Below are positions 31,827 through 47,226 of a stretch of DNA of 64,000 nucleotides, in pieces. The notes beneath the pieces are model-generated. The model did not search any database and had not been told where the DNA came from. It worked only from the letters and a program-made list of their open reading frames with translations. The position numbers and the translations under genes are program-made. The number at the start of each line of letters is the position of its first letter. Within the stretch, counting starts at the first letter, position 1. Source of the DNA: Escherichia coli. GTDB taxonomy: Bacteria; Pseudomonadota; Gammaproteobacteria; Enterobacterales; Enterobacteriaceae. The stretch lies in assembly GCF_024700885.2 (NCBI RefSeq), contig NZ_CP117016.1. One strand, written 5' to 3'.

Positions 31827-31991
31827 ATGGCAAAGCCGATCATCACGCTCAATGGCCTAAAAATCGTCATTATGTTGGGAATGCTGGTCATTATTCTCTG
31901 CGGTATCCGTTTTGCCGCCGAGATCATCGTGCCGTTTATTCTCGCATTATTTATTGCTGTTATATATAACTTATTTCGCATAACACATTGA
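31827..31991 (+). pseudogene. tqsA: tqsA (AI-2 exporter) 5' fragment, truncated by island insertion
   Basis: [45 protein letters not shown] runs into island DNA (IYNLFRITH*). The continuation [11 protein letters not shown] resumes at 47227. Confidence 0.9.
31955..31963. repeat. att core copy (integrase-distal junction; I call it attL by window position)
   Basis: TGCTGTTAT, identical to 47218..47226. Confidence 0.85.
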
Positions 31992-32037
31992 TTTAATTAA
32001 ATAATTAACACCGCAAAAAGTGCCAAAAATCGCAAAA

Positions 32038-32060
32038 TGACTACACCAGTGACTACACCG
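32038..32060 (+). repeat. 23-bp arm repeat TGACTACACCAGTGACTACACCG (left arm)
   Basis: A perfect copy lies at 47068..47090 in the same orientation. It is internally a tandem GACTACACC x2. Similarity continues for about 10 more bp (TCG[G/T]TGCAC). Confidence 0.85.
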
Positions 32061-32077
32061 TTCGGTGCACTGTATGA

Positions 32078-32102
32078 AACAACGTGGAACAAATAGACAC
32101 AA
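32078..32102 (+). repeat. 10-bp-phased (A/C)ACAA array, left arm (3 units)
   Basis: AACAA at 32078 and 32088, CACAA at 32098. Confidence 0.7.
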
Positions 32103-32415
32103 GAAATATACAGGCGGATCATCTTTCCAGGGGGAAGCACACCAATTCATGAGGGGCGTTAATGTCGATATGGGGATCCCCACCTACCGGAATTTTTTTC
32201 CGGTTAAACGTTAATCAGGCTGGTGGGCTTTACCTGTTCGGTAGGTGTTATGATTATCGTAATACCTTTCCCCCAATGGGGTAAAAGCATCAACCGTAAC
32301 GAAAGTCGTTATGGTTGCCACTGATACCCCAAATTTGGGTATCACGAGTAAGCCCCAAAATCTGGGTGTTACTCTTACTACCCAAACTACGGGTAGTTTC
32401 CGTAGTTTCATGGTC

Positions 32416-32435
32416 GAGTTGCAGATCTGCAACTC
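32416..32435. repeat. Perfect 20-bp palindrome GAGTTGCAGATCTGCAACTC
   Basis: Read directly from the sequence. It lies in a non-coding 0.7-kb island end, next to three CCCAAA..GGGT dyads (about 32324-32396) and a tandem GTAGTTTC x2. Confidence 0.8.
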
Positions 32436-32689
32436 CCCCATTAACCACAGGCGAATTTCCGCCTTCGGTCATTCCTTAATCATCTGCGTAATCATAATGA
32501 TTATTCAGCAAGCGCAATTTTGCGCTTTGCTTAAAGTTCAGCGAGTTACCGCGCCGACTTCCTCAAATTGAGGTTTCCGAAAATATCAGCGGGTTAGCGA
32601 TTAAGCTGACCATTAATTAAACTGCGAAAATGTCGTAGTTGTGAGGGGTGTAGCCAACCCATTTTTGGGCCGTCGGGAATATCAACCAG

Positions 32690-32971
32690 TTACCGCCGCA
32701 ACCGCTCCGGCTTCTTCCAGTGGTACGTTATTTTCTCCTTCTCCCGATACATCTCCACGCGGCGACGGTAGGCCAGCAACTCAAGAACTCTGGTTCGTAT
32801 GTTGCGCATATCCACGCCATTAAGTTCTATACCATCACGGCGCATCACCTCAGCAACAACACGCGCATAGTTTTCGGCTGTCACGCTGTCCGGCTGCGTG
32901 GCCTGTTCGTCAGCCTGCTGGCTGATTCCGGCAACGCGGCGGATTAATCCCGTTATTTCGGCTTCTGTCAT
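32690..32971 (-). CDS. Hypothetical protein (93 aa) downstream of terL
   Basis: ATG with SD gaggt. It lies 13 nt after the TerL stop. No family was recognised. Confidence 0.6.
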   Translation of the reverse strand: MTEAEITGLIRRVAGISQQADEQATQPDSVTAENYARVVAEVMRRDGIELNGVDMRNIRTRVLELLAYRRRVEMYREKEKITYHWKKPERLRR

Positions 32972-32984
32972 GCTGCTGACCTCA

Positions 32985-34646
32985 TTACACCCCGCTAAAT
33001 TCTTCCAGTTTCTGGCGGTGGCTGTCGCTTATATCAAAAGCAAAATCCTCATGCTCTGCCTGGAATGTACCAAACGCCATCAGCGCCGCCACGCTCGGGT
33101 CTATCTTGTTCGGTGATTTTTTCTTGTTCGGCTTGATATTGGCGTTCGCGTCACTCTGCATCACGACGTTACTCATCGACCAGGACAACACCGGATCGCC
33201 ACGATGCACAATCACCCTGCGGTTAACAAAAACTTCGAACGATTTCGCCGCCGGACTGAATCTGAGGTAGGTTTGCGGGAACGGCTCCACCTCAAAACCT
33301 GCCCCCTGTAATTGCGTTCTGAGATGCGTGGCGTTCCACGTATCAAAGCCCACCAGCCTGATATTAAATTTCTCCGCGTCCTGCATGATGTCATCTCTGA
33401 TCCGGTCGTAATCAATGCAGTCGCCAGGCGTTGTGCGTATCCAGCCTGCTTTAGCCCACTGACGATAGATGGCGCGGTTTTTATTGGCGGGGTTCTGTAG
33501 CTGAAATTCCGGCAGATAGTGACGGGAAACCAGCATAATGGTTTTACCGACCGGAAAGGCATAGCACACGCTGGAAATATCGCTGGTTGATGATAAGTCC
33601 AGCCCCGCGTAACACTCCTGGCCGTGTAAATCTTCCTCCGTGAACGTTCCGGCACACTCAGCCCATGCGCCGTTACCCATCCACGGGGTAGCCCCCTGGC
33701 ACCAGATATTAAATCGCTTTGTCATCATCTCCACCCACTGCGACGGAATACCCCGCGCTTTCTGGATGGTTGAGGCCAGTTTTTCACGATCGACGGAAAC
33801 ATCAATATTAGGGTTCGCCTTTATCCACATCGCCGGATCATCAACCTCGTTTTCGTCGTCCAGTTCGTAAATCAGTACAAAAATTGAATCGTTAACCTCT
33901 TCGCCGTCCAGGATCTGGCAGCAATAATCATAGTGCTGCTTACAGGCTGAAACGACGTTGCTGCCTGATGTGGTAATGGCAAATAACAGCCCTTCGGGAC
34001 GTGCGCCCATCCCCAGCTCAAGCGCGGAATAAACGCCGTTATCGGGGTGCAAGTGGTATTCGTCCACGATGGAAAGGCTGGGGTTTGTTCCCTCGATGGT
34101 TGCCGCTTTTGCTGCCAGCGGCTTTAACAGGCTGTTGCTTTTCGGGTGTATCACCTTATGCGCCTGAATATTCACCCGCCTGCGTAACGGTCGGGATAAA
34201 AGGCACATCTGACGCGCATCATCAAAGACGATCCGCGCCTGGTCACGGCTCACCGCTGCGGTGTAGATATCCTGCTGACCGTTCTCCATAATCAGAAACC
34301 AGTTAGCCAGAATCGCGGCGGTCGTGGATTTCGCATTTTTGCGCGGCACTTCGATAAAGGCGCTCGTGTATTTGCGCCGTCCGGTGGCCTTAACCTTAAA
34401 GCCGAGGATGCACGCAAAGGCGAACTGCTGCCACGGCTCCAGCTCAATGGGTCTGCCACGCATCGGTCCTTTTACGTGCGGGCACACCCTGGAAAAGGCA
34501 ATAAACCGCTCCACAACCTCACGATCGAACGTGTAAAGGGGGCTTTTAAGGTCCGAAAAGTACCGTTTAACGGCCTGTTTCAGCCGTTTACAGGCCGGAA
34601 TTTTGCCCGTTTTTACGTCTTCTGCGTACTTATTCCAGGCGGTCAA
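32985..34646 (-). CDS. terL: Terminase large subunit (Terminase_1-type)
   Basis: 553 aa with an ATPase region (VPRKNAKST Walker A-like, IVDEYH Walker B) and a C-terminal nuclease. The TTG start overlaps the terS 3' end and has SD gagga. Confidence 0.85.
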   Translation of the reverse strand: MTAWNKYAEDVKTGKIPACKRLKQAVKRYFSDLKSPLYTFDREVVERFIAFSRVCPHVKGPMRGRPIELEPWQQFAFACILGFKVKATGRRKYTSAFIEVPRKNAKSTTAAILANWFLIMENGQQDIYTAAVSRDQARIVFDDARQMCLLSRPLRRRVNIQAHKVIHPKSNSLLKPLAAKAATIEGTNPSLSIVDEYHLHPDNGVYSALELGMGARPEGLLFAITTSGSNVVSACKQHYDYCCQILDGEEVNDSIFVLIYELDDENEVDDPAMWIKANPNIDVSVDREKLASTIQKARGIPSQWVEMMTKRFNIWCQGATPWMGNGAWAECAGTFTEEDLHGQECYAGLDLSSTSDISSVCYAFPVGKTIMLVSRHYLPEFQLQNPANKNRAIYRQWAKAGWIRTTPGDCIDYDRIRDDIMQDAEKFNIRLVGFDTWNATHLRTQLQGAGFEVEPFPQTYLRFSPAAKSFEVFVNRRVIVHRGDPVLSWSMSNVVMQSDANANIKPNKKKSPNKIDPSVAALMAFGTFQAEHEDFAFDISDSHRQKLEEFSGV

Positions 34647-34986
34647 GCTCGTCCTCTTCTTCTGTTTCCGGTGGGTTTTTACGGCGGCTTATCGGGTCAA
34701 AACCGAGCAAGGAGGCCATTTTTATCATCACCCTTTCAGCGTCTGATTTCGCGCTTAATGCGGGGTTTCTGCTCTCGCCGCCCTGACTGTTAACAATGCT
34801 GAACCCGCGCGCCGCAAGGTCTGCGACGGCTTTCCGGTAAATGGAGTAGTTGACACAATACAGTTCCAGATTGCTCCAGTCGGCGGGGGTCAGGTCTCCC
34901 CGTTCCGCAAGCTGCCGCGATTTTTCCCGCCACTGCTTCACGGCGATGTCATCCAGGTAGGCGGGGGCTTTCGGTGGTCTTGCCAT
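34630..34986 (-). CDS. terS: Terminase small subunit, P27 family
   Basis: 118 aa; MARPPKAPAYLDDIAVKQWRE...LELYCVNYSIYRKA is typical of P27-family TerS. Confidence 0.8.
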   Translation of the reverse strand: MARPPKAPAYLDDIAVKQWREKSRQLAERGDLTPADWSNLELYCVNYSIYRKAVADLAARGFSIVNSQGGESRNPALSAKSDAERVMIKMASLLGFDPISRRKNPPETEEEDELDRLE

Positions 34987-35108
34987 GCTTATTTTTCGTC
35001 AGATTATTTTTCAAAAAATTCCCGTGCATAAAAATTTGAGGAGGCGTTCGGTGCCCGGCGGGGTCGGGTTTGTCCTGAAAACGCCCCCCACCCCGTCATA
35101 CAGCCTCA

Positions 35109-35282
35109 TCAGCGATTGCGGAAACATTCCATAACCTCGCGGTCACGGTCGGTTAATCGCTTCGCTGTGATGCGTTCTGCGCGTCCTGACGCTTTATCTT
35201 TATGCCCTGTTTCCTGTGTCTTCCATGCGTCACGCTGCCTTATAAGTCCACGGATAAGGCGGTTTTGTTCCCGCTCATTCAT
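35109..35282 (-). CDS. Small hypothetical protein (57-60 aa) between HNH and terS
   Basis: This is the C-terminal part of track ORF 35109..35513. The ATG at 35282 (or 35291) overlaps the HNH stop. The rest of that ORF is out of frame inside the HNH gene. Confidence 0.4.
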   Translation of the reverse strand: MNEREQNRLIRGLIRQRDAWKTQETGHKDKASGRAERITAKRLTDRDREVMECFRNR

Positions 35283-35715
35283 CAGCGTCATACATCCAGT
35301 TATTGCGGTTAGCGGCCCGTTCTTCCTCTTCACGAAATCCACCTGCGGCACGCTTGCTTTTTGTTGCCGGATCAAGCCATTTCGTTTTCTGGTTATGACA
35401 CGCCTGGCACAATGGTTGATGGTTCCATTCGGGCCAGAAGAGAACATCATCACCGCCATTAATCGGGATAATGTGATCCACCACCACGGCGGGCGTATAT
35501 ATCCCCTTCTCAAGGCATCGCACGCATAACGGGTTTTTACTCAGATACATGGCGCGGTATTTGTCCCACTGTCTGGAATATCCACGCGCGCGGCGGTGTC
35601 CTCGTCTGGCATCCTCTGCACGCCATGCCGCCCGCCTGTGCTCCTCACACTTGCCGGATTTAACGCGCCTGTTACAGCCTGGTTCTGTGCATCGTCTTAA
35701 TGGTTGCCACGGCAT
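35275..35715 (-). CDS. HNH endonuclease (packaging-associated)
   Basis: 146 aa with Cys pairs and DHIIP...N..LCQACHNQKT, an HNH motif. It sits beside terS as in HK97-like cos phages. Confidence 0.85.
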   Translation of the reverse strand: MPWQPLRRCTEPGCNRRVKSGKCEEHRRAAWRAEDARRGHRRARGYSRQWDKYRAMYLSKNPLCVRCLEKGIYTPAVVVDHIIPINGGDDVLFWPEWNHQPLCQACHNQKTKWLDPATKSKRAAGGFREEEERAANRNNWMYDADE

Positions 35716-36011
35716 CAGTACACCCCCACATCACGGTAAGCCGTCCAGAGTGCGCCTATCGTCATGGGTACGCGTGTTTTTGCGTTATCCGCGACAATCT
35801 GGCGATTTTCATACAGGTGAGCGATAAACATCATGCAGCCAATCTTTATGGCTGGCGTGAACTCCAGCCCGTCATCAAAGCGCCTGCCTATGTGTATCTG
35901 GCACGCCTCAAGCGATGCGGCAATGTATCCGCTGATTAACTGGTCTTCATCGTCGCCATCGATGCGGCAATGGAGTTTCACTTCTTCCAGGGTGATAAGT
36001 TCTTCTGTCAT
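35715..36011 (-). CDS. gp6-like head-tail connector protein
   Basis: 98 aa. MTEELITLEEVKLHCRIDGDDEDQLISGYIAAS is the typical Phage_connect_1 N-terminus. ATGA overlap with the upstream gene. Confidence 0.75.
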   Translation of the reverse strand: MTEELITLEEVKLHCRIDGDDEDQLISGYIAASLEACQIHIGRRFDDGLEFTPAIKIGCMMFIAHLYENRQIVADNAKTRVPMTIGALWTAYRDVGVY

Positions 36012-36346
36012 TTTTCCGCGCCCTCACGACAAAGAATTTCAAGGCGTGTCCTGGCGGCATCCGGCAGCGGCTGCCCGATGATATTCAGTACACGCCCCGC
36101 CAGCGGCCCCGTACTGACCTTTATCCGGCTGGTGGCGTTGATGTCCTTCCGGTACCGTATCCAGATCCTTACGGTACCAATCGCCAGCTCTGCGCCCGAT
36201 GAAATGGCCTCCTTGCTGCTGACCATGTTCACGCTTGCCCAGAGTGTGTGACCGTCCTCCCACGTTTCGAGTATTTCGCCGGTTATATCCCTGGTCTGTT
36301 TCAGGGTCTGAATCGTTATCCTGTCACGCAGTCGCCCTATGTTCAT
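36008..36346 (-). CDS. Head-closure / head-tail adaptor protein (SPP1 gp16-like)
   Basis: The start was set at MNIGRLRDRITIQ (ATG 36346, ATGA overlap with the portal stop), giving 112 aa. Confidence 0.7.
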   Translation of the reverse strand: MNIGRLRDRITIQTLKQTRDITGEILETWEDGHTLWASVNMVSSKEAISSGAELAIGTVRIWIRYRKDINATSRIKVSTGPLAGRVLNIIGQPLPDAARTRLEILCREGAEK

Positions 36347-37554
36347 TCCGGTTTTTCTCCCTCGCTGATTTTTACTTCCTGTTTCCATGCCTGGCTGAAC
36401 TCATCACCACCATCACGCGGTGACAGACCTTCACGTTCGCGGGCTTCGTTCGGACACATAACGCCGGATTTGATGCCGCGCTCATAGGTGGCAAAGCGTT
36501 CGCCAGGTGTGGCCCGTAACAGGTCCGCGCTGTCAAACTCCACCTGATACCGGATACCAGGTACAGGCGAGGCCACCAGCAGGGCGTTTTTTATCTGCTG
36601 CTCAAAGTTCGCCAGCCACGGGCGCATCGTCATGGTGAGAAATGCGCGGCTTGCCTCGCTGAAATTGCTGTAGGTGCTGTTGCTGTATTCCTGCAAAAAA
36701 ATCGGCGAGACGTTGAACATTCGGGCGATGTCTTCAATGGTGAAGCGACGGGAGGCCAGCCATTCAGCATCCTGATTACTCATGCCCAGCTGCTGATAGC
36801 TCATACCCCCTTCAAGGATGGGCGTTTTTCCGGCGTTTCTGGCCCCTTTGTAGCGTTCCAGTGCGGCTAATGCCTGTTTGCCCTTCACGCCGTCCAGCCA
36901 TTCGCCTGACGTGATAACCCCTGCCGCCATCATGCCATCACGCATCACGCTCGCGCCGTGGCGTTGTTGGGCCAGCCCAAGCCCCAGCGATTCGCGGCAG
37001 ATGGTTACAGGTGAGCACCCCATAAAGCCGTCATCCGTGGAGTAACGAAGGTGAAGTACTTCCCACGGTAAATAGTTGCGGGTGTTTCCGGTGTAGGCGT
37101 CAGTGATGCAGTAGCGCCAGTTGTGTTCGCCTGTCTGCTCCACGTTCACCGACTGCGGCGGGTAAGGATGTAAAGCCGCCGGAAAACCATCACGCCCCCA
37201 CTGAATCACCGCATAAGCATTACCGTTTAACAGGCAGTGGCGGATCATCATTCGCTTAAACTGGTAGGGGGTTTGCCATGCGTTCGGGCGCTCGTTGAGG
37301 ATGTGATCGACCGGATGAGAATCAAGCCACTCGCGGGCCTCCTTCCCCTTCTCATTGCGTACCAGGTACAGGTAACACGGCATGGTAGCCACCGCCTCAG
37401 AGATGACCGTCACGGCGTTCATGACGGCGGGCAGTGATTCCGCTGTCCCCGATGATACGTACTCACCCGCCCCCGTGTTCGATGTGCCAGCCAGCGCCAT
37501 AAATTCATCCAGCGTCATGCTGCGCTGCTCTTTTTTTCTTCTGAAAGGCCACAT
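36343..37554 (-). CDS. Portal protein, HK97 family
   Basis: 403 aa, recognised by family-typical sequence and position. SD gggggtg. Confidence 0.85.
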   Translation of the reverse strand: MWPFRRKKEQRSMTLDEFMALAGTSNTGAGEYVSSGTAESLPAVMNAVTVISEAVATMPCYLYLVRNEKGKEAREWLDSHPVDHILNERPNAWQTPYQFKRMMIRHCLLNGNAYAVIQWGRDGFPAALHPYPPQSVNVEQTGEHNWRYCITDAYTGNTRNYLPWEVLHLRYSTDDGFMGCSPVTICRESLGLGLAQQRHGASVMRDGMMAAGVITSGEWLDGVKGKQALAALERYKGARNAGKTPILEGGMSYQQLGMSNQDAEWLASRRFTIEDIARMFNVSPIFLQEYSNSTYSNFSEASRAFLTMTMRPWLANFEQQIKNALLVASPVPGIRYQVEFDSADLLRATPGERFATYERGIKSGVMCPNEAREREGLSPRDGGDEFSQAWKQEVKISEGEKPE

Positions 37555-37555
37555 A

Positions 37556-38128
37556 TCACACCCCCGCTAAATCCACCCACCAGCGGCGATTATCCGCACG
37601 CGGCATTTTTTCGGGGTGCTGCTCATACAGGGAACGGCGGGCCAGCTCCACGCCGGAATCGGGGTAAGCCGGTACCGATGTAACGGTAATTTCGTACAGT
37701 TCCGCCACCAGCACGGTGCGCACGCATGGATCTGTTGTGGTATCCCATACATCCTTACGGGAGCGAAAGCCAAAGCTCATCCCCGAGATGTCCCCACGCT
37801 TAACCAGTTCGATAACGTCGCGCCCTGTACTGGTATCCGGTGGGGTCAGTTCAAAGCGTAACCCTGTTTCGTCCTCTTCCAGTTTCAGCGTGCCGGAACG
37901 GGTGCGCCCCAGTAACATGCTGTGGTCATGCTCATACAGGCCGCGAACGTCATTACCCGCCGCAAGCCACTCAGTAAACGCCCCCCGCTGGAATTTTTCG
38001 TAAAACTCCCCCCATAGCAGTTCTGAAAGCTTATCCCAGCGAACAACGTAGCCCGTCAGCGTACCGGCTCCGCTGGTAGTGATTTCCGATGACCGGATTT
38101 CCATACTCTTCATAATTTTTTCACCCAT
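37556..38128 (-). CDS. Prohead serine protease, HK97 (S78) family
   Basis: 190 aa (start may be 38113). EHD...LLGR and GMSFGF motifs are present. Confidence 0.85.
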   Translation of the reverse strand: MGEKIMKSMEIRSSEITTSGAGTLTGYVVRWDKLSELLWGEFYEKFQRGAFTEWLAAGNDVRGLYEHDHSMLLGRTRSGTLKLEEDETGLRFELTPPDTSTGRDVIELVKRGDISGMSFGFRSRKDVWDTTTDPCVRTVLVAELYEITVTSVPAYPDSGVELARRSLYEQHPEKMPRADNRRWWVDLAGV

Positions 38129-38137
38129 AAAACACTA

Positions 38138-38157
38138 AAGGGGCTTTTAAGCCCCTT
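38138..38157 (-). terminator. Hairpin between capsid and protease genes (possible attenuator)
   Basis: Stem aaggggctt/aagcccctt, followed on the minus strand by ttagtgtttt. Confidence 0.4.
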
Positions 38158-38167
38158 CTGTATGCTG

Positions 38168-39325
38168 TTAATCGTCGTCCTGTGGCAGTTCCAGAATCTT
38201 GATCGCGTTCGAATCCACCACGCCACCGCCTAAATATTTCTGCGTGAAAATTTTGATGAAGCCCGGCTCTGTGAGGTTGTCCGGTCTGGTGCGAACACCT
38301 GTTTCGTGATCAACAATGTAGTAACCGCGTTTGAAGTCACCCAGGGCAATAACGTTATCCGGCATAAACTCCAGATATTCGACCGGAAGGCCCAGTAACG
38401 TATCAGGATCACCCGCCTGTAAACGGTCGCGCCAGATGTAATCACCGTTCGCGTTCTTCACCTTCTGAAGTTTTGCCGCCGTCGTGGAGTTAACCACCCA
38501 GACCGCGTTTTTGCGGTATTTTTTACGTAATGCAAATTTCAGGTCGATCAGCGGGTCCGCAGATGTCCACGCCAGAGATTCGGAAGGTTTAATTACCTGC
38601 AACGTACCAAAATCACGCTCTTTGTCGTTCTTCTCTGCACGGGGTACGGATAAAAAGCCTTTTGCTTTTTTGTCACCGTCGCCCACAACCAGATCGCTTT
38701 CTTCGGTTTCCGTGAAGTTGTCGCCAATCTCGCCCGTCAGCCATGAAAGGATGTCCACATCGGAAAAATCCACGATTTCCTGCGTGGTGCGCGGGTACGC
38801 ATAGACCGGATACAGCTTAATGCTCACCTCGTTAATCTGCGGGGTGCTGGTCTGTTCGCGTGCCTTACCCTCTTCACCGTGGTTAACGGTCGCACCGCCA
38901 GCGGAAACAAGCTGCTTAAACTCGTTGCTGCTGATTTTCTTCACGGTACAGATGCGGCGCATGGTGGATTCATCCGTCAGCATTCGCATGATTTCGGTGT
39001 TCAGTTCGGGGATAACGGTATAACCACCATCAGCGGGAACGCCTGTACTTAATGCGCGGGTTTCACCTGTCAGAATGTAGTGACGTAGTTCGGCTGGGTC
39101 AGTGGTCTGACTGCTTTTACCTGGCTTGCTGCGCTCTTCGTCTGCAATGGCTTCAAGGCGGGAAATGTCTTTATCGAGGGATTCAGCTTTAGCGCGTAAT
39201 TCGTCAAATTTTGCGCCCTCAGCATCGTTAAGACTGCGGTTTTCTTTTTCCGCGTTCTCCAGCATGTCGCGCATCTGATTTTTAATGGCGGTTTTCTGCT
39301 GGCGTAATTCGATTATTCTCGGCAT
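38168..39325 (-). CDS. Major capsid protein, HK97 fold, with N-terminal delta/scaffold-like coiled coil
   Basis: 385 aa with a charged helical N-terminus (about 100 aa) followed by an HK97-family capsid body. Confidence 0.88.
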   Translation of the reverse strand: MPRIIELRQQKTAIKNQMRDMLENAEKENRSLNDAEGAKFDELRAKAESLDKDISRLEAIADEERSKPGKSSQTTDPAELRHYILTGETRALSTGVPADGGYTVIPELNTEIMRMLTDESTMRRICTVKKISSNEFKQLVSAGGATVNHGEEGKAREQTSTPQINEVSIKLYPVYAYPRTTQEIVDFSDVDILSWLTGEIGDNFTETEESDLVVGDGDKKAKGFLSVPRAEKNDKERDFGTLQVIKPSESLAWTSADPLIDLKFALRKKYRKNAVWVVNSTTAAKLQKVKNANGDYIWRDRLQAGDPDTLLGLPVEYLEFMPDNVIALGDFKRGYYIVDHETGVRTRPDNLTEPGFIKIFTQKYLGGGVVDSNAIKILELPQDDD

Positions 39326-39539
39326 AAAAAAAGTCCTGGGGTTAAGTAAGGAACTCCAGGACGCGGCAAAAACTCAACCGTTTTTCATAAGGAAATCAGC
39401 AATCGCACCGATCGTTTTCCCGCCTGGTAATGAATATTGGCGAGAACATTAACAGGCGGAAAAGTGGCCCCAGCGTCCTGGCACCACGGGCGAGAATAAT
39501 CATGATTCAGTTCGGGTAAAATATGCCGATCCGCTCAGT

Positions 39540-39565
39540 GAACAACGTGGAACAACCACGAACAA
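39540..39565 (+). repeat. Three GAACAA units at exact 10-bp spacing upstream of the capsid operon
   Basis: GAACAA at 39540, 39550 and 39560. Confidence 0.8.
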
Positions 39566-39583
39566 ATAATTTACAAAACATGA

Positions 39584-39606
39584 CAAAAAGCCGGATTGCT
39601 CCGGCT
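39584..39606 (-). terminator. Rho-independent terminator ending the early/replication operon
   Basis: The minus strand reads agccggagcaatccggct + ttttgt, immediately after the stop at 39613. Confidence 0.7.
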
Positions 39607-39612
39607 GTGTGA

Positions 39613-39894
39613 TTATCTGTCCTGGTAATTTCGCCATATTTCATTACCAGCACCATCCATACCCATTTCGGCATAAGTGCGATCGACCGCCTTTTTCAGG
39701 TCTCCGTAGTTATCCGGCGGCTCCGGTGGCCTCTGTGCCTTCCTGGAACATTCCAGCCGTCGCATCGTGATGTGATGCCGTTCCTTGTCTGTCTCCACCA
39801 GTTGCATGACTTCACCCCATCGCGCCGACGCTCTCCGGTAAAAGCCTTTCGCCTCCAGTTCTTCCGCTATGCGGTCATGTACCATCGTCCCCAC
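39613..39894 (-). CDS. PerC-like transcriptional activator (candidate)
   Basis: 93 aa. IAEELEAKGFYRRASARWGEVM matches the (L/F)(W/Y)RRAxxRWxEV motif I recall for the PerC/Pch family. Not verified by search. Confidence 0.5.
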   Translation of the reverse strand: MGTMVHDRIAEELEAKGFYRRASARWGEVMQLVETDKERHHITMRRLECSRKAQRPPEPPDNYGDLKKAVDRTYAEMGMDGAGNEIWRNYQDR

Positions 39895-39897
39895 CCC

Positions 39898-40308
39898 TCA
39901 GAACGGAATATCATCACCGTAAGGGTCATCGCCTCCCGCTGGTGGCTGATTACCCTGTGTGCCTGTGGTCTTGCGTCGGCTCCCACCAGGACGTGCCGCA
40001 CGGGCACTGATTACGCTGTCTGCAATAACCTGATAACCCTGCCGCGTTTCCCCGTTCTGTCCGGTCCACTGGCTGACCTGCATCGTGCCGGATACGCTGG
40101 CAACGTCGCCTTTTTGATGTTTAGCCAGGAAGTCGGCCTGCTTACCAAATGCGATGACCGATAGCCATAACGTCGCCTGTCCATCCTGTGCCTGGCTGCA
40201 TGGCAGCGATACCGCCATACGCGCCAGCGTCATCGGTGTACCCTTGCTGGTCTGTTTTACCTGCGGGTCGTCCACCAGCCGCCCGTAAGCTGCTATCTGT
40301 GCTGTCAT
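39898..40308 (-). CDS. ssb: Single-stranded DNA-binding protein
   Basis: 136 aa with an OB-fold N-terminus, a Gly/Pro-rich linker and the acidic tip DDIPF. Confidence 0.88.
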   Translation of the reverse strand: MTAQIAAYGRLVDDPQVKQTSKGTPMTLARMAVSLPCSQAQDGQATLWLSVIAFGKQADFLAKHQKGDVASVSGTMQVSQWTGQNGETRQGYQVIADSVISARAARPGGSRRKTTGTQGNQPPAGGDDPYGDDIPF

Positions 40309-40583
40309 GATTCCACCTCTCCGGTTTTAACGTTGATGGTTGTTACCTGTTCCGCTTCGGCAATCTCCCGCTCTGTCAGCGTGGCAAAATTTGCCGCCGT
40401 CGTGGTCATGAATGCGCTTATCAGTTTGGGATGTGCTTTCGCGTATCCTTCCCCCGCGTGGCGGTCTATCGTTCTGATTGCCACCTTTAAAGCGTGCTCT
40501 GTCATGTCTAACGCGCGATATTTCGGTTCTGTTCTGTCTCTGCGTTTTTTGAGTGATTTATTAAATTTCCCTGAAGTGTGCAT
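40305..40583 (-). CDS. Hypothetical protein (92 aa)
   Basis: ATG at 40583. Its stop overlaps the ssb start (ATGA). Confidence 0.5.
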   Translation of the reverse strand: MHTSGKFNKSLKKRRDRTEPKYRALDMTEHALKVAIRTIDRHAGEGYAKAHPKLISAFMTTTAANFATLTEREIAEAEQVTTINVKTGEVES

Positions 40584-40632
40584 ATTTATTTTTACCCCCT
40601 CGTTTAAAAAGTTTTGAGTTGTGCCTCCCCTT

Positions 40633-40855
40633 GTCTACCTTATCTACCTTAGTGGCCCTCATACCAGTAATGGCGCGGCTTTCAGCGGGGTAGAGTGCTT
40701 TTATCCACTATCTACCCCGTGTCTACCTCCCTGTCTGATTCAGGTAAAATCAGGTAGAGAGGGTAGATAGTGGGTAGACAGTAAAAAAAGGTTATCTACC
40801 TAACTTAATGCACTGAATTAAATGTATTTTTCTTTACTCAGGTAGACAGGGTAGA
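40633..40855. repeat. Iteron cluster / candidate island replication origin
   Basis: 11 copies of the hexamer GGTAGA/TCTACC. TCTACC starts at 40634, 40644, 40711, 40722 and 40795. GGTAGA starts at 40689, 40753, 40762, 40773, 40841 and 40850. They flank an AT-rich stretch (40801-40840) directly downstream of the primase stop. Confidence 0.75.
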
Positions 40856-40871
40856 CAGCAATTACAAAAAA

Positions 40872-42626
40872 TTATAAAAACGCGTCGCACTCGTCTGTTG
40901 TTATTGCGTTAGTCTGCGTTACTCCCTTAACTTTCCGCGTAATATATTCATGTCCGTAAACTTTCGCGGCTGGCTTCATAGCCTTGCCAAAGTCATTTAC
41001 GTTTAGCGGTTTGCTCCTGCCTGCGTACGCCATAAACGCCAGATAGACGCGGTAAAGGCTGTTTCTGGTCGTGTACTTCACTGAATCGCCACCGCCGCCC
41101 ATCATCAGGCCGCGTGCTTCCTCCAGAAAATTCAGGAACTGGCAAAACTCAATAACCGGATCCGTCTGTTGCTTTATTGCCAGAGCTTCATCACCGTCAC
41201 GCTGTTCCAGTAGTAAAGCCCGTGCCTTCTCAGGGTCGGTAAAGTTCGCCAGCAATCGGCGGATAATGACAGGGATTTCAGCCGCGATCTTTTCCGGTAG
41301 CTCCCTGTCTTTTTCGGCCTCACTGACGATATTGTCGAAACGGAAAATCACGCGACGACGTGCCACACCTCCGGCCCGTTCGGTGAATATCATCGGGTTA
41401 TTGTTGGTCGCCAGCACCACCGCCCTGATTACCGCCGTGAAACGCTTTTCGTATTTCGGGTTAATTTCCACGGGGTCACCGCCCGTGATTTTCTTGATGC
41501 CCGTTCCTTCGCCTGTATATTTCGGCTGGTCAGCCAGGACGATAAGACGACTCCCGACAACCTGCGCACGTCCACCAGCATCATCAAGCGATGTCATTTC
41601 AGCGCTTACCGTGTTCTGTTTCCCTGCCAGAAGGCTGGCTATGTGTGTGAATGTACTTTTACCGCTCCCGCCGTCTCCGGTGGCCTCAATAAACATCTGC
41701 CAGTCGTACCGGTTCGCCATAATCATGTACAGCGCGGCACATATACGCATCATCTTGCGCGGGTCTTTTCCGGCTGCGTGCTCAAGCCATTTATGAAAGT
41801 TTGGCGCGTTATCGCGGATGTTCTCCCCTGGTGCTGGTGGCGTGTACTCAATGCCGTTGTGCGTGGTGATCCAGTTCTCCGGCGTGTGCGGGGAAAATTC
41901 CCCCGTTTTCAGGTCAAGCGCACCATTGGCGAACGGCAACAAATCGCCGGACGGCTCGCCCATTGGTTCGGCAATAACTTTTAACGCTTCCACGGCGTTA
42001 TTGATTACGCGCTTGCTGAAAGTGGCCCTGTGCTCTGAATAGATCGCCACCATTTCGCGGCTAAGTTCCATTGTGCTGACCGGACACCATACCCCGCCGC
42101 GCCATACGTGAACGATTTCACTTTCAGGATGTACGCAAACGCCATCAAAGCGATCGGCAAGCAGTTGCGCGCGCTCACTGTCCGCCATCTGCGAAAGTTG
42201 CGCCTTTTGCTTTACCGGAAGCTCAATGACCAGACCATCAGAAAGATTCTGGCGCTCACGGGCCAGATATTCGCGCCAGTTCTCCACCTTCTGACCGTGC
42301 ATACCATCAGGGTAAAAATTTGCATCCTGTACGCCTGCCGCCGCCAGCTTCTGACCAATCGCCTTTATCATTACTGGCGCAAGATATCCGGCCCTGAATA
42401 TGCGCACGGATTTTCTGCCTTCCGGCACAATTTGCAGCTTATCCAGTTCGGATAACTGCTGCTCCCCAAGCCACACAGGAGGCTCATTATCTCCGGCCAT
42501 ACGCGCGTCATGTTCCTGCCATTGTTTTGCGTGTGACCAGGCATCACTACCCGCAAAAATAATGACTTCTGTTTCTTTGTGTTTTATGCCGCGTGACTGC
42601 TGTTTTACGTTCGGTGCCAGTTTCAT
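40872..42626 (-). CDS. P4-family primase/helicase (pri-rep)
   Basis: 584 aa with Walker A GDGGSGKST and Walker B LIVLADQP. The C-terminal architecture is D5/P4-alpha-like. Confidence 0.82.
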   Translation of the reverse strand: MKLAPNVKQQSRGIKHKETEVIIFAGSDAWSHAKQWQEHDARMAGDNEPPVWLGEQQLSELDKLQIVPEGRKSVRIFRAGYLAPVMIKAIGQKLAAAGVQDANFYPDGMHGQKVENWREYLARERQNLSDGLVIELPVKQKAQLSQMADSERAQLLADRFDGVCVHPESEIVHVWRGGVWCPVSTMELSREMVAIYSEHRATFSKRVINNAVEALKVIAEPMGEPSGDLLPFANGALDLKTGEFSPHTPENWITTHNGIEYTPPAPGENIRDNAPNFHKWLEHAAGKDPRKMMRICAALYMIMANRYDWQMFIEATGDGGSGKSTFTHIASLLAGKQNTVSAEMTSLDDAGGRAQVVGSRLIVLADQPKYTGEGTGIKKITGGDPVEINPKYEKRFTAVIRAVVLATNNNPMIFTERAGGVARRRVIFRFDNIVSEAEKDRELPEKIAAEIPVIIRRLLANFTDPEKARALLLEQRDGDEALAIKQQTDPVIEFCQFLNFLEEARGLMMGGGGDSVKYTTRNSLYRVYLAFMAYAGRSKPLNVNDFGKAMKPAAKVYGHEYITRKVKGVTQTNAITTDECDAFL

Positions 42627-42922
42627 TTTTTACCCCTGAATCCGTTAATCATGGTTTTCAGCTTCTGGATGTTTGCCCGTGCCCTGGCGTTGCTGGTGGA
42701 CACGTTATGCGGCGCGGTCTGTACCAGAGAAAAATCACGCCGGAACTGATAAACAGGCATCACGCAATCATATTCGTAACCTTCACGGCGGTAGGTTACG
42801 CGCCGTTCTTCCACGCCCTTAATCATTACCGTGCCGCCGTACTGGTCGCGGTAAATATCGCCGCGCGTAAATTTAGGGTGAGTGTTGCCACTGGCAGTTA
42901 AGCCAGAATATTTAAGTTTCAT
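42623..42922 (-). CDS. Hypothetical protein (99 aa)
   Basis: SD ggaga. ATGA overlap with the primase start. Confidence 0.55.
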   Translation of the reverse strand: MKLKYSGLTASGNTHPKFTRGDIYRDQYGGTVMIKGVEERRVTYRREGYEYDCVMPVYQFRRDFSLVQTAPHNVSTSNARARANIQKLKTMINGFRGKK

Positions 42923-42927
42923 TATTT

Positions 42928-43161
42928 TTATTCTCCGGTGTGCTGTTCTTTATATCTGTCGTGCAATAGATCTATTTCTTGCAGTTCCATTATTACAGGC
43001 TCAAGAAGCGTTATTAATGCCGTGGCAATTCTTGATTTTTGTTTGTCGCGTTCATTGTCGCCAAGTGTTTCAAGCCATATGCGCAATATTTCCAGCATGT
43101 TTTCACTGTGAGAAAGTGCAAGAAATGCGCGGTCTATTGTTTCGTGGTAAATATCACGCAT
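42928..43161 (-). CDS. Hypothetical protein (77 aa)
   Basis: ATG with SD gagga. Part of the packed operon. Confidence 0.5.
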   Translation of the reverse strand: MRDIYHETIDRAFLALSHSENMLEILRIWLETLGDNERDKQKSRIATALITLLEPVIMELQEIDLLHDRYKEQHTGE

Positions 43162-43387
43162 GGCTTACATCCTCAGGAAATTTTCTTCTATAACGCGCCT
43201 CTGCCACATATTCCGCATAATCGGCGGCGATATTCAGTACATCAAGCCCCGTTGATTTATATTCTCTCGTGGAAAGTAAGAAAAAAGCCGCTCTAATAAG
43301 TTCTGGCATTGACGAAAGCGCATCAGCCGCATCATCAGGAACGCCGGAAAATTCCTGTTTCAGGGAATTAAAACGATCATCACGCAT
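43154..43387 (-). CDS. Hypothetical protein (77 aa)
   Basis: ATG with SD gggggg. It has 8-nt overlaps with both neighbouring genes. Confidence 0.5.
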   Translation of the reverse strand: MRDDRFNSLKQEFSGVPDDAADALSSMPELIRAAFFLLSTREYKSTGLDVLNIAADYAEYVAEARYRRKFPEDVSHA

Positions 43388-43745
43388 GTTTACCCCCCTG
43401 AATGACCTGATAACCGCAACTGGTCAGCAACTCGATAAATTCCGGCAGTGTGCCGAAACAGCAATCATCACGCAGCCGTTCACAGGATACCTCGACGCCG
43501 TTTTCGTAGTGACTCACCATACATCCGGTAAAATGCAGATCATCATCGTGATGGCTCGTTGACGGCTTAATCAGTCGCGCACGTTCCGCCAGTTCCAGCA
43601 ATGCTTCAACGCTTCCGGCAATTGCACCATCCGGCAGGTGATAATTACGCACTATGCGCCCGTTCTCCACATTGACCAGCAACTGCCCGGTAAATTTCTC
43701 ATCAAACTGAATGCTGTTAAGGTCAGAAATTGACAGATTATGCAT
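43380..43745 (-). CDS. Hypothetical protein (121 aa)
   Basis: The start was moved to MHNLSISDL (ATG 43745), preceded by a strong SD aggagg. Confidence 0.55.
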   Translation of the reverse strand: MHNLSISDLNSIQFDEKFTGQLLVNVENGRIVRNYHLPDGAIAGSVEALLELAERARLIKPSTSHHDDDLHFTGCMVSHYENGVEVSCERLRDDCCFGTLPEFIELLTSCGYQVIQGGKHA

Positions 43746-43962
43746 GGTGCACCTCCTGCACATCAGCCATGATAATTTTTCCGGCCTTATCCAGTGCCTG
43801 ATCGGCTTTTAGCTGCACAAATGCTAAATAATGGAAGATGCATTCTGATTCTCTGGCTGCGTGTTTATGCGCCCTGTCAGCAATAACAGAAATATCAATA
43901 AGCGCGTGCATCAGCGTAGTGAGCGCGGCGGCGGCTGCGTCCGGTGTGGTTTTATTGCACAT
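43738..43962 (-). CDS. Hypothetical protein (74 aa)
   Basis: The start was moved to MCNKTTPD (ATG 43962), preceded by SD ggagggg. Confidence 0.5.
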   Translation of the reverse strand: MCNKTTPDAAAAALTTLMHALIDISVIADRAHKHAARESECIFHYLAFVQLKADQALDKAGKIIMADVQEVHHA

Positions 43963-44182
43963 GTACCCCTCCGCATTTTTTTTCGTTAGAAATAAGCGTT
44001 CTTCTTTCCTGTTCATCGCTCAGGAATACGCAGACCTCACCGCTAAGGCGTTTAAGTAAGCCGATGATTGCCCCTGATTCGCTGTCGGTCATCATGCCAG
44101 GGTAATCCTCTGCCAGTGCGCAAATAACTTCGATTTGGTGGGCGCGTTCTGCTGCCTGTTGTAGTGTGATTTCCTGGCTCAT
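43952..44182 (-). CDS. Hypothetical protein (76 aa)
   Basis: ATGA overlap with the icd-like stop. Confidence 0.5.
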   Translation of the reverse strand: MSQEITLQQAAERAHQIEVICALAEDYPGMMTDSESGAIIGLLKRLSGEVCVFLSDEQERRTLISNEKKCGGVHVQ

Positions 44183-44379
44183 AAGCCTACCCCCTGACGA
44201 ATACGGGCAGCAAATACCATCACGCAGCCAGCCGGAGATTGCTGGCGTGCTTCCTGTTCGCTGGTGGCCTCAATGGTAATCACGCGCGGTTGTGCCGTGC
44301 TCAGGGCGATAAAACGCCAGATGTATTTATTCAGGTTGTGCGAGTCCCGCCCTTGCGGGTGTGTGGTATGATTTCTCAT
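44179..44379 (-). CDS. Icd-like host cell-division inhibitor (66 aa)
   Basis: This is the C-terminal 66 codons of the 340-aa track ORF. ATG at 44379 with SD gaggt. YIWRFIAL...ATSEQEARQ...VFAARIR resembles Icd-like proteins of P4-type elements, from memory. Confidence 0.55.
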   Translation of the reverse strand: MRNHTTHPQGRDSHNLNKYIWRFIALSTAQPRVITIEATSEQEARQQSPAGCVMVFAARIRQGVGL

Positions 44380-44475
44380 AGCTACCTCGATACTTTCGCT
44401 ATCGTTGGTGGTTAGAAGCCCGGTTAGTGTTAGCGCACTGCCGGGTTTCGTCGTTTCTGCACCTTGCGCCAACAA

Positions 44476-44529
44476 GGTGTTGAACACCAATTTAAACCCA
44501 GGTGTTAAACACGTCAAGTGTTGAACACT
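44476..44529. promoter_or_regulatory. Three operator-like 13-bp dyads (GTGTT-N-AACAC) in a divergent promoter region
   Basis: GGTGTTGAACACC 44476-88, GGTGTTAAACACG 44501-13, AGTGTTGAACACT 44517-29. A putative rightward promoter, TTGAAC(44521)-17 nt-CATACT(44544), overlaps the third dyad. Confidence 0.65.
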
Positions 44530-44578
44530 TATTTTTTTTCCTGCATACTGCATTTGTTTTTTATGAGGGGTACACCAC

Positions 44579-44758
44579 ATGGCGACAAAAGCGGTAAACG
44601 CAAAATCACAAACCGTTGCGGCAAGGGTTCCGCATGAAGTTATGAACAATGTTGAGGCGGTAAAAATGCCTGGCGAAAGTACGGGGCAATTTGTTACTGC
44701 GGCATTAAAACGAGAAGTTGAATATCGCCAGCGGCGCAAGGCCAAAGAACCAGAGTAA
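44579..44758 (+). CDS. Ribbon-helix-helix (Arc/CopG-like) DNA-binding protein, 59 aa, candidate island repressor
   Basis: Hand-translated as MATKAVNAKSQTVAARVPHEVMNNVEAVKMPGESTGQFVTAALKREVEYRQRRKAKEPE*. SD gagggg. It has a beta-strand-helix-helix pattern. It is below the ORF-track cutoff and is one of only two plus-strand genes in the island. Confidence 0.5.
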   Translation: MATKAVNAKSQTVAARVPHEVMNNVEAVKMPGESTGQFVTAALKREVEYRQRRKAKEPE

Positions 44759-44800
44759 TCACCATCAGCGCCGTGGTGTAAGGTATTACGGCGCATTGCT

Positions 44801-44989
44801 ATGCAGGACAACACAATGACCGATAAAGAATTGACCAAAACATTATCACCGGCACGGAAAAGACGGCGCAGAAAGATAGAGCATGAATCAGAAAGATTCG
44901 CGCCATGTGCTTTTGCCCTTGAGCAATTCCTTAAAGAGTACAGGGAAAAGCGCTCATTGCAGGTATGGCAACGAACTGAACCAGACTGA
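44801..44989 (+). CDS. Hypothetical basic protein (57-62 aa)
   Basis: Downstream of the RHH gene and before the plus-strand terminator. Contains an ARKRRRRK stretch. The start may be 44816. Confidence 0.4.
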   Translation: MQDNTMTDKELTKTLSPARKRRRRKIEHESERFAPCAFALEQFLKEYREKRSLQVWQRTEPD

Positions 44990-45084
44990 TTGCATTGCCC
45001 ACCAGCCTGATAACGGCTATCATCCCCGTGCTTATGTTTGGGATCACACACACAAACGGCGCAGCGGGTTATCTGTTCAGAAAG

Positions 45085-45112
45085 GCGGCTCCATTTCGGG
45101 GCCGCTTTTTTT
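45085..45112 (+). terminator. Rho-independent terminator of the rightward RHH unit
   Basis: Stem gcggctcc/ggggccgc (8 bp, one G-U pair) followed by 7 T. Confidence 0.7.
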
Positions 45113-45258
45113 ATACCTGAAAAACCCCAATTTTGTTGTTTTTCAGTTTCACCAGGGCGAACGAATCCCCGCCCACGTTCTGGCGTATATTCAATCTTCA
45201 TGGTTATAGCTCTGTGTTCAGATGATTGATGTGTGGCGGCTGCGTGCCGCCAGCGTGA

Positions 45259-45447
45259 TTAATGAACTGCCTTGCAGCTATCCTTCCAGGCCAGAACCTC
45301 GGATAAAGACCAGCCAACGGAACGACCGCCAAGTTTACGACGTGATGGGAATTGTCCGGCCTTTTCCAGGCGGTAGCGACACGTACGGCTAAGGCCGGTT
45401 AGTTTTTCGCATTCTTTTTCACGTATAAACCGATCAGTGCTTAACAC
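45259..45447 (-). CDS. alpA: AlpA-family regulator / excisionase-type HTH
   Basis: FIREKECEKLTGLSRTCRYRLEKAGQFPSRRKLGGRSVGWSLSEVLAW is the typical AlpA/Phage_AlpA motif. The favoured start is the GTG at 45447, 5 nt after SD aagggggg. The track ORF extends to a TTG at 45528. Confidence 0.8.
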   Translation of the reverse strand: MLSTDRFIREKECEKLTGLSRTCRYRLEKAGQFPSRRKLGGRSVGWSLSEVLAWKDSCKAVH

Positions 45448-45720
45448 TATTGCCCCCCTTTCGTTTCTTAAAGAGTCATCAGGTGTCTTATTGTGTCGTA
45501 TTGTTCCCGCTAGAGTGATGAATGGCAAATACTGAGGATGTATGATTTACAGAAAATGAAACAGTAAGAATAAAATTTTTTAAATTCATGTTAATACAAA
45601 GGCATAAAATATTGTTCCATGCCTTTTTTCTCGCTCTTTAAAGAGTGATTCGCTAGTGTACAAAAAACCAGTAACGCATTAAAAATCAGCTACTTATAAA
45701 TCCGTACGCTTTTTCGCCTC

Positions 45721-45765
45721 TTGTTCGTAGTTGTTCCACATTGTTGCTCATTGTTGCACGTTGTA
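45721..45765 (-). repeat. Five TTGTT/TTGTA units at exact 10-bp spacing (inverse orientation of the GAACAA arrays), int-alpA intergenic
   Basis: Units start at 45721, 45731, 45741, 45751 and 45761. Confidence 0.8.
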
Positions 45766-45812
45766 TCTGTTCGCATATCCAGTATGCGCATACTGAAAAA
45801 ACACGAAAAAAA

Positions 45813-47042
45813 TTATTTTCTTCTGGCTACGGGTAGCGTGGTTACGTTTTCATGTGTTCCCGCCAGTATCCCTAACCGCTCCGTCCACATATCCAGCGCA
45901 TTGCGTTTCGCATCCAGATAACGGGAATGATTATAAACTCGCTGCATTCCTGGCATCTGGTGGCCTGTAAGCTGCTCCACGACATGCGGATCAACGCCTA
46001 AATCGTTCAGCATGGTTGTAAAGGTGCGCCGGATGTCATGCAGTGACCAGTGAGGGTGATTAAGCCTCCTGTACGCTAATCTTCCATACTGCGATACGCT
46101 GGCCTCCTGTTTCACTTCCCCCAGCAATAAGCCCGTGTGCCTGTTCTGCTCCACCAGCTGCGTGACGAACGGCAGGATCGCTTCCGGTATGGGCCGGAAT
46201 ATTGCGACCTTCGTTTTGCTGTGCTCCTTCGGAACGGTCCATAGCATTTCCGTAAAATCCCACTCCCCGATCTCCGATAACCTCAGTTCTACCGTTCTGG
46301 CTCCGAAGACAATCAGGAGGCGGATTAACGCGACGTAGTAAGGGGAGAATATTTTTTTGTCCAGTGCCTGCAATAATTCGCCAAGTTCTTTGTTACTTAA
46401 GACACGTTCGCTTATATCCGGTTTTTTCCCAACGTCCGCAACGTTCAGATCGTCCAGAACGTTGCTGATTGCATAGCGCCGCCTACGGCAGAACTTAAGC
46501 GCCTGTTTGCACGCCTGTAGCACGAATCCGGCAGTAACAGGCGTTCGCTTTGCCACCTGGTCAAAACAGGCCAGCCAGTGCCGTAGCTCGCATTTATCCA
46601 GCGGCATAGCACCAATCTGCTGTATTACGTGATTATTAAGTCGCCTTTTCAGGGCGATATAATCCACGCGGTTTTCCTTTACGTAATACTCAAGCCAGTA
46701 GGTGAGCGCATCGCCAACCGTTACGGGCTTTAACGCTTCCTGTACGGTGTAATTCATCTCATGACGTGGATTTTTCCCCTCAGCCAGCCATGTGCGACAC
46801 TGTGCGGCTTTTTCCCTGGCTGCTTTCAGGCTCAGATCAGGATAACTTCCCAGCTTAATGCGTTCGGGTCGTGTCTCCCTTCCCGTTCCGGCCCTGTATG
46901 TGAAATACCAGGTCAATTTCCCTGATGTTAAATATTTCACGCTCAGGTTTCCGCCATCACTATAAAACGTGTTTTTCTCCGCTGGCTTACCATGAAGTTT
47001 CCTTAGCAAGGTATCGCTCAGTTTGTTCATTGCTCTGCTCAC
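45813..47042 (-). CDS. int: P4-type tyrosine integrase (DUF4102 arm-binding N-terminus + catalytic core)
   Basis: 409 aa, with either a GTG at 47042 or an ATG at 47030 (MNKLSDTLLRKL). The N-terminus is GKLTWYFTYR...LGSYPDLSLKAAR. Catalytic motifs HDIRRT and Y in VYNHSRY are present. Confidence 0.9.
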   Translation of the reverse strand: MSRAMNKLSDTLLRKLHGKPAEKNTFYSDGGNLSVKYLTSGKLTWYFTYRAGTGRETRPERIKLGSYPDLSLKAAREKAAQCRTWLAEGKNPRHEMNYTVQEALKPVTVGDALTYWLEYYVKENRVDYIALKRRLNNHVIQQIGAMPLDKCELRHWLACFDQVAKRTPVTAGFVLQACKQALKFCRRRRYAISNVLDDLNVADVGKKPDISERVLSNKELGELLQALDKKIFSPYYVALIRLLIVFGARTVELRLSEIGEWDFTEMLWTVPKEHSKTKVAIFRPIPEAILPFVTQLVEQNRHTGLLLGEVKQEASVSQYGRLAYRRLNHPHWSLHDIRRTFTTMLNDLGVDPHVVEQLTGHQMPGMQRVYNHSRYLDAKRNALDMWTERLGILAGTHENVTTLPVARRK

Positions 47043-47067
47043 GTTTTACCCCCTCTTTACGAAAAAG

Positions 47068-47090
47068 TGACTACACCAGTGACTACACCG
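47068..47090 (+). repeat. 23-bp arm repeat TGACTACACCAGTGACTACACCG (right arm)
   Basis: Perfect copy of 32038..32060, in the same orientation. Confidence 0.85.
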
Positions 47091-47108
47091 ATCGTTGCAC
47101 AAAGGGCT

Positions 47109-47132
47109 ACAACGTGAAACAAGCTGGAACAA
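47109..47132 (+). repeat. 10-bp-phased ACAA array, right arm (3 units, a 4th at +12)
   Basis: ACAA at 47109, 47119 and 47129, and another at 47141. Confidence 0.7.
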
Positions 47133-47217
47133 GGAAAATCACAAATCTATTGATAATCAAAAACATAATGCACAGCCTGAAACATTATGAAACAGCAAAA
47201 AACACTAAATGATAAAA

Positions 47218-47226
47218 TGCTGTTAT
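47218..47226. repeat. att core copy (integrase-proximal junction; I call it attR by window position)
   Basis: TGCTGTTAT, identical to 31955..31963. Confidence 0.85.

Follow-up and report, generated by a model that had tools for sequence, protein, structure and literature searches.

A head-packaging operon in Escherichia coli tqsA assigned to a capsid-forming satellite of the EcCIEDL933 type

The head-packaging operon

The window analysed here is a stretch of 64,000 nucleotides of Escherichia coli chromosome (NCBI RefSeq assembly GCF_024700885.2, contig NZ_CP117016.1), 100% identical to strain MLI114. It carries at 32985-39325 a head-packaging operon related to that of EcCIEDL933, the prototype of those phage-inducible chromosomal islands that form capsids (cf-PICIs). 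The operon consists of nine tightly packed open reading frames (ORFs), all intact and all on the minus strand. Gene identities were assigned by Pfam and PHROGs profile matches and checked against the RefSeq annotation of the identical copy, which agreed. On the minus strand the order is capsid, S78 protease, portal, Hc1, Ad1, HNH, small ORF, TerS and TerL, as listed below.

38168..39325, minus strand: major capsid protein, HK97 fold family (Phage_capsid, E value 1.5e-61); 99% amino-acid identity with the EcCIEDL933 capsid
37556..38128, minus strand: prohead serine protease (Peptidase_S78, 7e-48)
36343..37554, minus strand: portal protein (Phage_portal, 6e-90)
36008..36346, minus strand: head closure protein Hc1 (Phage_HCP), called adaptor before
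35715..36011, minus strand: gp6-like head-tail adaptor Ad1 (Pfam and PHROGs), called connector before
35275..35715, minus strand: HNH endonuclease, a packaging accessory (Pfam and PHROGs)
35109..35291, minus strand: small conserved ORF of 60 amino acids (phrog_3173); identical protein in EcCIEDL933
34630..34986, minus strand: small terminase TerS, P27/Terminase_4 family; same protein accession in EcCIEDL933
32985..34646, minus strand: large terminase TerL, with ATPase and nuclease domains

From the protease through the small ORF the genes abut or overlap, and real spacers were found at two places only, 39 nt between capsid and protease and 122 nt between the small ORF and terS. These results bear out the gene identities, coordinates and order that a sequence-only reading had proposed from the letters alone. 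That reading had named swapped identities as a danger to its argument; the profile matches showed no swap, 38168..39325 being the major capsid and 36343..37554 the portal.

Assignment of the island

The operon occupies part of an island inserted in tqsA, whose other features are as follows.

31964..47217, minus strand: whole island, about 15.26 kb, assigned to the cf-PICIs
45813..47042, minus strand: tyrosine integrase (Pfam Arm-DNA-bind_3 and Phage_integrase); about 90% amino-acid identity with the EcCIEDL933 integrase
45259..45447, minus strand: AlpA regulator (Pfam Phage_AlpA, 5e-17); 100% identical to EcCIEDL933 AlpA
40872..42626, minus strand: primase/replicase (Pfam D5_N, DUF5906, Pox_D5)
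39613..39885, minus strand: regulator gene of the PerC family, adjacent to the head operon on its upstream side (Pfam PerC, 4e-43); EcCIEDL933 has one too
32690..32971, minus strand: conserved hypothetical gene after terL, 93 amino acids (phrog_1561)

A 9-bp direct repeat, TGCTGTTAT, flanks the island at 31955-31963 and 47218-47226. The spacing of its copies (31955 vs 47218) is 15,263 bp, within the cf-PICI size range of about 10-18 kb. The RefSeq record of the identical copy shows tqsA as fragments at 31827-31970 and 47219-48124, and in nucleotide alignment the homology to EcCIEDL933 ends at 31982 and 47218. The island also codes for a DUF4222 protein and a single-stranded DNA-binding protein (SSB), both by Pfam. 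The scan of the island ORFs, which left out a few short ones in 42928-44182, gave no Pfam or PHROG match to tail, lysis or holin families, and no tail or lysis product is listed in the RefSeq annotation of the identical copy.

The closest known element is EcCIEDL933 (NZ_CP008957.1, E. coli O157:H7 EDL933), to which 32678-39611 aligned in one 6.9-kb piece with 97.4% identity. The two elements encode identical AlpA, TerS and small-ORF proteins. EcCIEDL933 was reported to form its own small capsids, to package only itself and to take only tails from the helpers HK106 or HK446, and mutants of its packaging module lost island transfer with phage transfer unaffected, except for gene 1792, whose mutant showed a severe reduction only (bioRxiv 10.1101/2022.09.08.507074). 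The gene at 32690..32971 is possibly gene 1792, an identity that the text of the paper does not settle. Experimental demonstration of helper induction, self-made small capsids, exclusive self-packaging and helper tails has been published for EcCIEDL933 and KpCIDSM30104 only.

All 11 core components of SatelliteFinder are present, including the island's own capsid, protease and portal, its adaptor and connector, and its HNH, TerS and TerL. The island has the size and att repeats of a cf-PICI, an int/AlpA/primase module, the conserved gene order, no tail or lysis genes, and relatedness to known members; it has neither the tail and lysis modules nor the canonical head order of an autonomous HK97-like temperate phage. 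We therefore consider it very likely that the region is the head-packaging operon of a cf-PICI, a close variant of EcCIEDL933, in E. coli tqsA. The element itself is known, and the locus adds a new copy of it at a tqsA site.

The same region might also be read as a decayed and rearranged HK97-like prophage from which the tail, lysis and early genes have disappeared, with the odd order left as debris. All head and packaging proteins do fall in HK97-type families and tail genes are absent, which speaks for this reading. However, the ORFs of the module are without exception intact and lie tightly packed, 80 loci of three orders have the same compact layout, and the nearest true phages are at most 40% identical. 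PICI-type int, alpA and primase genes are present, and the prototype, 97% identical, works as a satellite and can be transferred. Decay is thus highly improbable, and we set it aside because of the intactness, the family-wide conservation and the identity to a functional prototype.

Some observations concern the ends of the island. Between its last gene and the att end, about 700 bp (31971-32690) contain no convincing ORF; aligned with the corresponding EcCIEDL933 region, this part gave several partial matches that overlap, which suggests internal repeats. Just inside both ends lies a 76-nt imperfect direct repeat (32034-32109 and 47064-47139, 76% identical) that contains the tandem GTGACTACACCA GTGACTACACC. 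These end repeats are possible arm-type recombinase sites.

Gene order in relatives and in HK97-like phages

Relatives were collected by a capsid-profile scan of one genome per species, which gave 80 loci from Enterobacterales, Orbales (Gilliamella, Frischella) and Pasteurellales, with capsid identities of 56-98%. The order capsid, protease, portal, (Hc1), Ad1, HNH, (small ORF), terS, terL on one strand was found in every one of the 80 loci with enough sequence. Among complete E. coli genomes the module matched in 537 of 5426, with a coverage of at least 80% in 411. In a phage collection, only records of satellite DNA exceeded 58% identity in the capsid or 68% in TerL: satellite genomes of 10.7-16.5 kb deposited as phages (vB_KppS-Ant, Pmp7, Pmp8), a 3.8-kb fragment and the tail end of a 106-kb record. 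The nearest true phages, which have the canonical order, were 32-40% identical in the capsid and at most 36% in TerL, HK97 itself not being among those scored. The cf-PICI DNA filed as phage comprised LR881103, OR544139, OR544138, OR850982 and positions 90-106 kb of PQ569648 (LR881103, OR544139 and PQ569648 are our loci L002, L003 and L008).

The layout is also in print. Proteobacterial cf-PICIs were described as carrying capsid, protease, portal and head connectors followed by hnh-terS-terL (Alqurainy et al., bioRxiv 10.1101/2022.09.08.507074), a later cf-PICI paper uses the same gene set and order as identification criterion, and SatelliteFinder reported 969 cfPICIs with a very conserved organisation. 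The capsid-first, terminase-last order is a fixed family layout, already published, and not peculiar to this locus. The sequence-only reading had held the order to be noteworthy unless it proved to be the norm in the closest phage relatives; in substance this is the case, as the order is the norm among the 80 close relatives and the nearest phage records are themselves satellites.

A side observation was made in the Pasteurellaceae cf-PICIs (L037-L081 and L003), which keep the order from capsid to terL. Their integrase gene lies just upstream of the capsid gene and alpA and primase lie downstream of terL, so that whole modules are rotated relative to att in this lineage.

The HK97 record places HNH at the right genome end next to cos, followed by terS, terL, portal, protease, capsid, Ad1 and Hc1, which confirms the canonical order from which the earlier reading started. 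Pseudomonas VW-6S, Yersinia YeP1 and HK97 all share terS-terL-portal-protease-capsid-Ad1, with Hc1 next in HK97, and the island differs from these true HK97-like phages as had been claimed. The label circularly permuted did not hold. Rotation of the HK97 map, with att or cos placed differently, is expected to give portal-protease-capsid-Ad1-Hc1-HNH-terS-terL, and this is not the order found. Only the HNH-cos-terS-terL block is kept as in HK97, at the far end from int; this block and the rotated modules of the Pasteurellaceae relatives would fit a permutation. Nevertheless, capsid-protease-portal and Hc1-Ad1 are each reversed relative to HK97, and no rotation can reverse these two sub-blocks while all genes stay co-directional. 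A true circular permutation is thus next to impossible and was ruled out by the order based on hidden Markov models, in which the profile matches (1e-61 for capsid, 6e-90 for portal) exclude a swap of capsid and portal. A single inversion or rotation cannot yield the island order; it is a gene-by-gene re-ordered operon, since frozen across the clade.

A conserved hairpin after the capsid gene

The capsid-protease spacer contains the following element, which the earlier reading had placed at 38138-38157.

38137..38158, minus strand: GC-rich hairpin with U-rich tail, resembling an intrinsic terminator (9-bp stem, 4-nt loop)

The hairpin reads GAAGGGGCU-UAAA-AGCCCCUUU, then AGUGUUUUAU, and the 61-nt stretch around it folds with -18.3 kcal/mol (z = -3.0 vs shuffles). 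Both flanking genes were located in 79 relatives, of which 76 have spacers of normal length, representing 54 distinct sequences; folding left out the three other spacers, of 4, 0 and 841 nt. Each of the 54 distinct normal-length spacers formed a GC-rich hairpin with a U-rich run behind it; the hairpin is real. The variants have different loops, the stems are altered in L038, L057 and L058, and L071 carries a non-homologous replacement stem. Strong U-runs follow the hairpin in the Pasteurellaceae copies.

In HK97 a putative terminator is annotated immediately behind the capsid gene. Since it stands at the same place, the hairpin would be ancestral and have travelled with the capsid gene. One may then ask whether the order is a frozen accident with no expression effect, the hairpin being an inherited relic or a stabiliser of the mRNA 3' end and not an attenuator. 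The HK97 terminator speaks for this, and so does the U-tract of the E. coli copy, which is interrupted (UUUAGUGUUUU). On the other side stand the presence of the hairpin in every distinct normal-length spacer, including the replacement stem and the strong Pasteurellaceae U-runs, and the invariance of the order over deep divergence. We regard a frozen accident as rather unlikely.

A predicted cos site between HNH and terS

The second spacer of the operon holds a putative cos site.

35001..35095, minus strand: predicted cos region, GGGGTGGGGGGCGTTTTCAGGAC ... CACCGAACGCCTCCTCAAATTTTTATGCACGGGAATTTTTTGAAAAATAA, proposed from conservation, likeness to the HK97 ends and the contig ends of LR881103

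Two non-coding blocks, 35076-35090 and 35016-35045, are 75-80% conserved among 66 distinct sequences from three orders. In the same comparison the coding sequence of the small ORF was 12-43% conserved and the start of terS 39-69%. The cos-like architecture of the cf-PICIs is GGGGTGGGGG ... ACCnCCCGCCnCCTCAAA-TTTTTACGCACGG..ATTTTTTTGAAAA, and it is paralleled by the joined physical ends of HK97, ...GGGCAGGGGGGGGG ... GACCGCCGCCAAA / GTTTGAATTTAACGC...GATTTTTTTAG. By homology with these ends, cleavage would be expected near 35035-35045, probably leaving a 3' overhang as in HK97. No cos position is given in the cf-PICI papers that were searched for the word cos, and the predicted position at about 35035-45 may not yet be in print.

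The source of LR881103, filed as phage vB_KppS-Ant, was a phage preparation; the assembled sequence matches the cf-PICI of Klebsiella pneumoniae ATCC 13883 with an identity above 99.9%, and this strain is treated here as equivalent to DSM 30104. Compared with the chromosomal copy, the contig is joined across att with an 80-bp overlap. Both its ends lie in the spacer between the small ORF and terS, with 69 bp absent between them, and its layout is terS-terL ... int ... primase-capsid ... HNH-small ORF. According to the vB_KppS-Ant paper, the identity of the phage sequence with the genome of DSM 30104 exceeds 99%. As a side observation, vB_KppS-Ant is KpCIDSM30104, and its paper calls it a filamentous single-stranded DNA phage; the coding sequence annotated as tape measure after its terL is probably a mis-annotated accessory gene.

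Because cos would lie in the spacer between the small ORF and terS, the packaged linear DNA would run terS-terL-att-int ... capsid-HNH-small ORF. The sequence-only reading had supposed a cos site between HNH and terS and a packaged genome that starts with terS-terL, crosses att into int and ends with the capsid-to-HNH block. The conserved non-coding blocks, the likeness to the HK97 ends and the LR881103 contig ends back the first of these suppositions and the layout of that contig matches the second; the evidence from the contig is supportive and not decisive.

Upstream region and repeats

The head operon is preceded by the following features.

39589..39606, minus strand: terminator-like hairpin after perC, separating the upstream genes from the head operon
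39326..39588, minus strand: upstream region of the head operon, with phased [A/T]ACAA repeats at 39541-39586

A PerC-family gene with its own terminator-like hairpin was observed immediately upstream of the head operon both here and in EcCIEDL933. No consensus match to a sigma-70 promoter was found on the minus strand of 39326-39612, and overall scan counts were below the shuffle mean. As no such match lies between the perC hairpin and the capsid start, an activator-dependent promoter for the head operon is likely.

The phased 10-bp repeats follow the pattern [A/T]ACAA-N5-NACAA, and 12 of the 13 matches in the window lie inside the island. They form clusters at 39541-39586, in the int-alpA spacer at 45721-45765 (plus 45491-45505) and in the att arms at 47108-47132 and 32078-32102. 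A related 15-mer has 11 matches vs 2.1 expected, a number that none of 100 shuffles reached. The same repeat layout was seen in EcCIEDL933 and a Shigella copy, and cf-PICIs whose int/alpA are divergent did not have the phased motif, which would be expected of an element-specific feature. These patterns suggest that the repeats are candidate sites for a DNA binder encoded by the island, such as AlpA or the integrase arm domain.

Proposed mechanism

By homology with the prototype, a helper phage would induce the island through AlpA, and the island would excise and replicate with its own primase. One co-directional operon would then supply the capsid, protease, portal, Hc1 and Ad1 proteins for small HK97-fold capsids, HNH-TerS-TerL would package only island DNA at its own cos site, and the helper would supply tails only. 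With the capsid gene first, a partial terminator after it may produce an excess of capsid mRNA relative to the downstream genes. Tentatively, and with more doubt than confidence, we propose a two-part scheme, in which the capsid-first order and the hairpin form an expression ramp that falls from abundant capsid over protease and portal to terminase, and the [A/T]ACAA repeats bind one island protein, either AlpA/Vis-like or the integrase arm domain. If true, excision and the onset of head-operon expression would be coupled through the repeat binder.

Several points weigh against parts of this account. What is said here of helper dependence, small capsids and tail theft is taken over from the 97%-identical prototype. 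The perC-capsid interval of the island (window about 39585-39611 vs positions 10511-10837 of the EcCIEDL933 locus, L005) is without a 327-bp segment of EcCIEDL933 that contains a 225-nt ORF, and as this segment is absent, regulation could differ from the prototype. The terminator scan, taken as a whole, found 12 candidates vs 10 expected from shuffles, which is no enrichment, so that the hairpin claim rests on its conservation across loci; the sequence of the stem core, GGGGC/GCCCC, is for the most part conserved, and few compensatory changes are therefore seen. Finally, the source paper of LR881103 describes a SPAdes assembly, and the contig ends could be assembly breaks, not true termini.

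Significance

The discovery value of the layout is small, since it is the published signature of proteobacterial cf-PICIs and the module matches in roughly one in ten complete E. coli genomes. For annotation, the locus is better labelled a cf-PICI of the EcCIEDL933 type than a prophage remnant, and satellites of this kind also stand behind the phage records vB_KppS-Ant and Pmp7/Pmp8 and behind part of P12620-1. Work on capsid stoichiometry and on self-DNA recognition in satellites gains concrete targets in the hairpin, which is conserved, and in the predicted cos site.

Comparison with known systems

HK97 and the HK97-like HNH/cos phages share with the island the same protein families and the adjacency of HNH-cos-terS-terL. 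The likeness extends to the cos of HK97, with a G-run ... ACCGCC..AAA / TTT ... ACGC ... GATTTTTTT. Unlike the island, HK97 has its head genes downstream of terL, carries tail, lysis and early genes, and has a genome of 39.7 kb. EcCICFT073 and EcCIED1a, which are classical PICIs of E. coli, resemble the island in their int-alpA-primase left half and, according to the EcCIEDL933 paper, in AlpA-dependent induction, whereas they lack genes for capsid, portal, connector and TerL and redirect helper packaging via Rpp.

KpCIDSM30104 (vB_KppS-Ant, LR881103) and other proteobacterial cf-PICIs have the operon order, the hairpin position and the conserved cos-like spacer in common with the island. Between KpCIDSM30104 and the island the capsid is 65%, TerL 81% and Hc1 38% identical, int and alpA are about 50% identical, and KpCIDSM30104 has an accessory gene after terL.

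EcCIEDL933 differs from the island in its position between roxA and phoQ with the core GGACATATTT (L005 3149 / 18610), the island having the core TGCTGTTAT in tqsA. The att cores are short and differ between the two copies, although their integrases are about 90% identical. The primase region also differs, being of D5_N type in the island vs annotated DUF927 in EcCIEDL933, with partial nucleotide homology only. The two elements agree in gene set and order, in the PerC and SSB block upstream and in size (15.4 kb in EcCIEDL933 vs 15.3 kb in the island).

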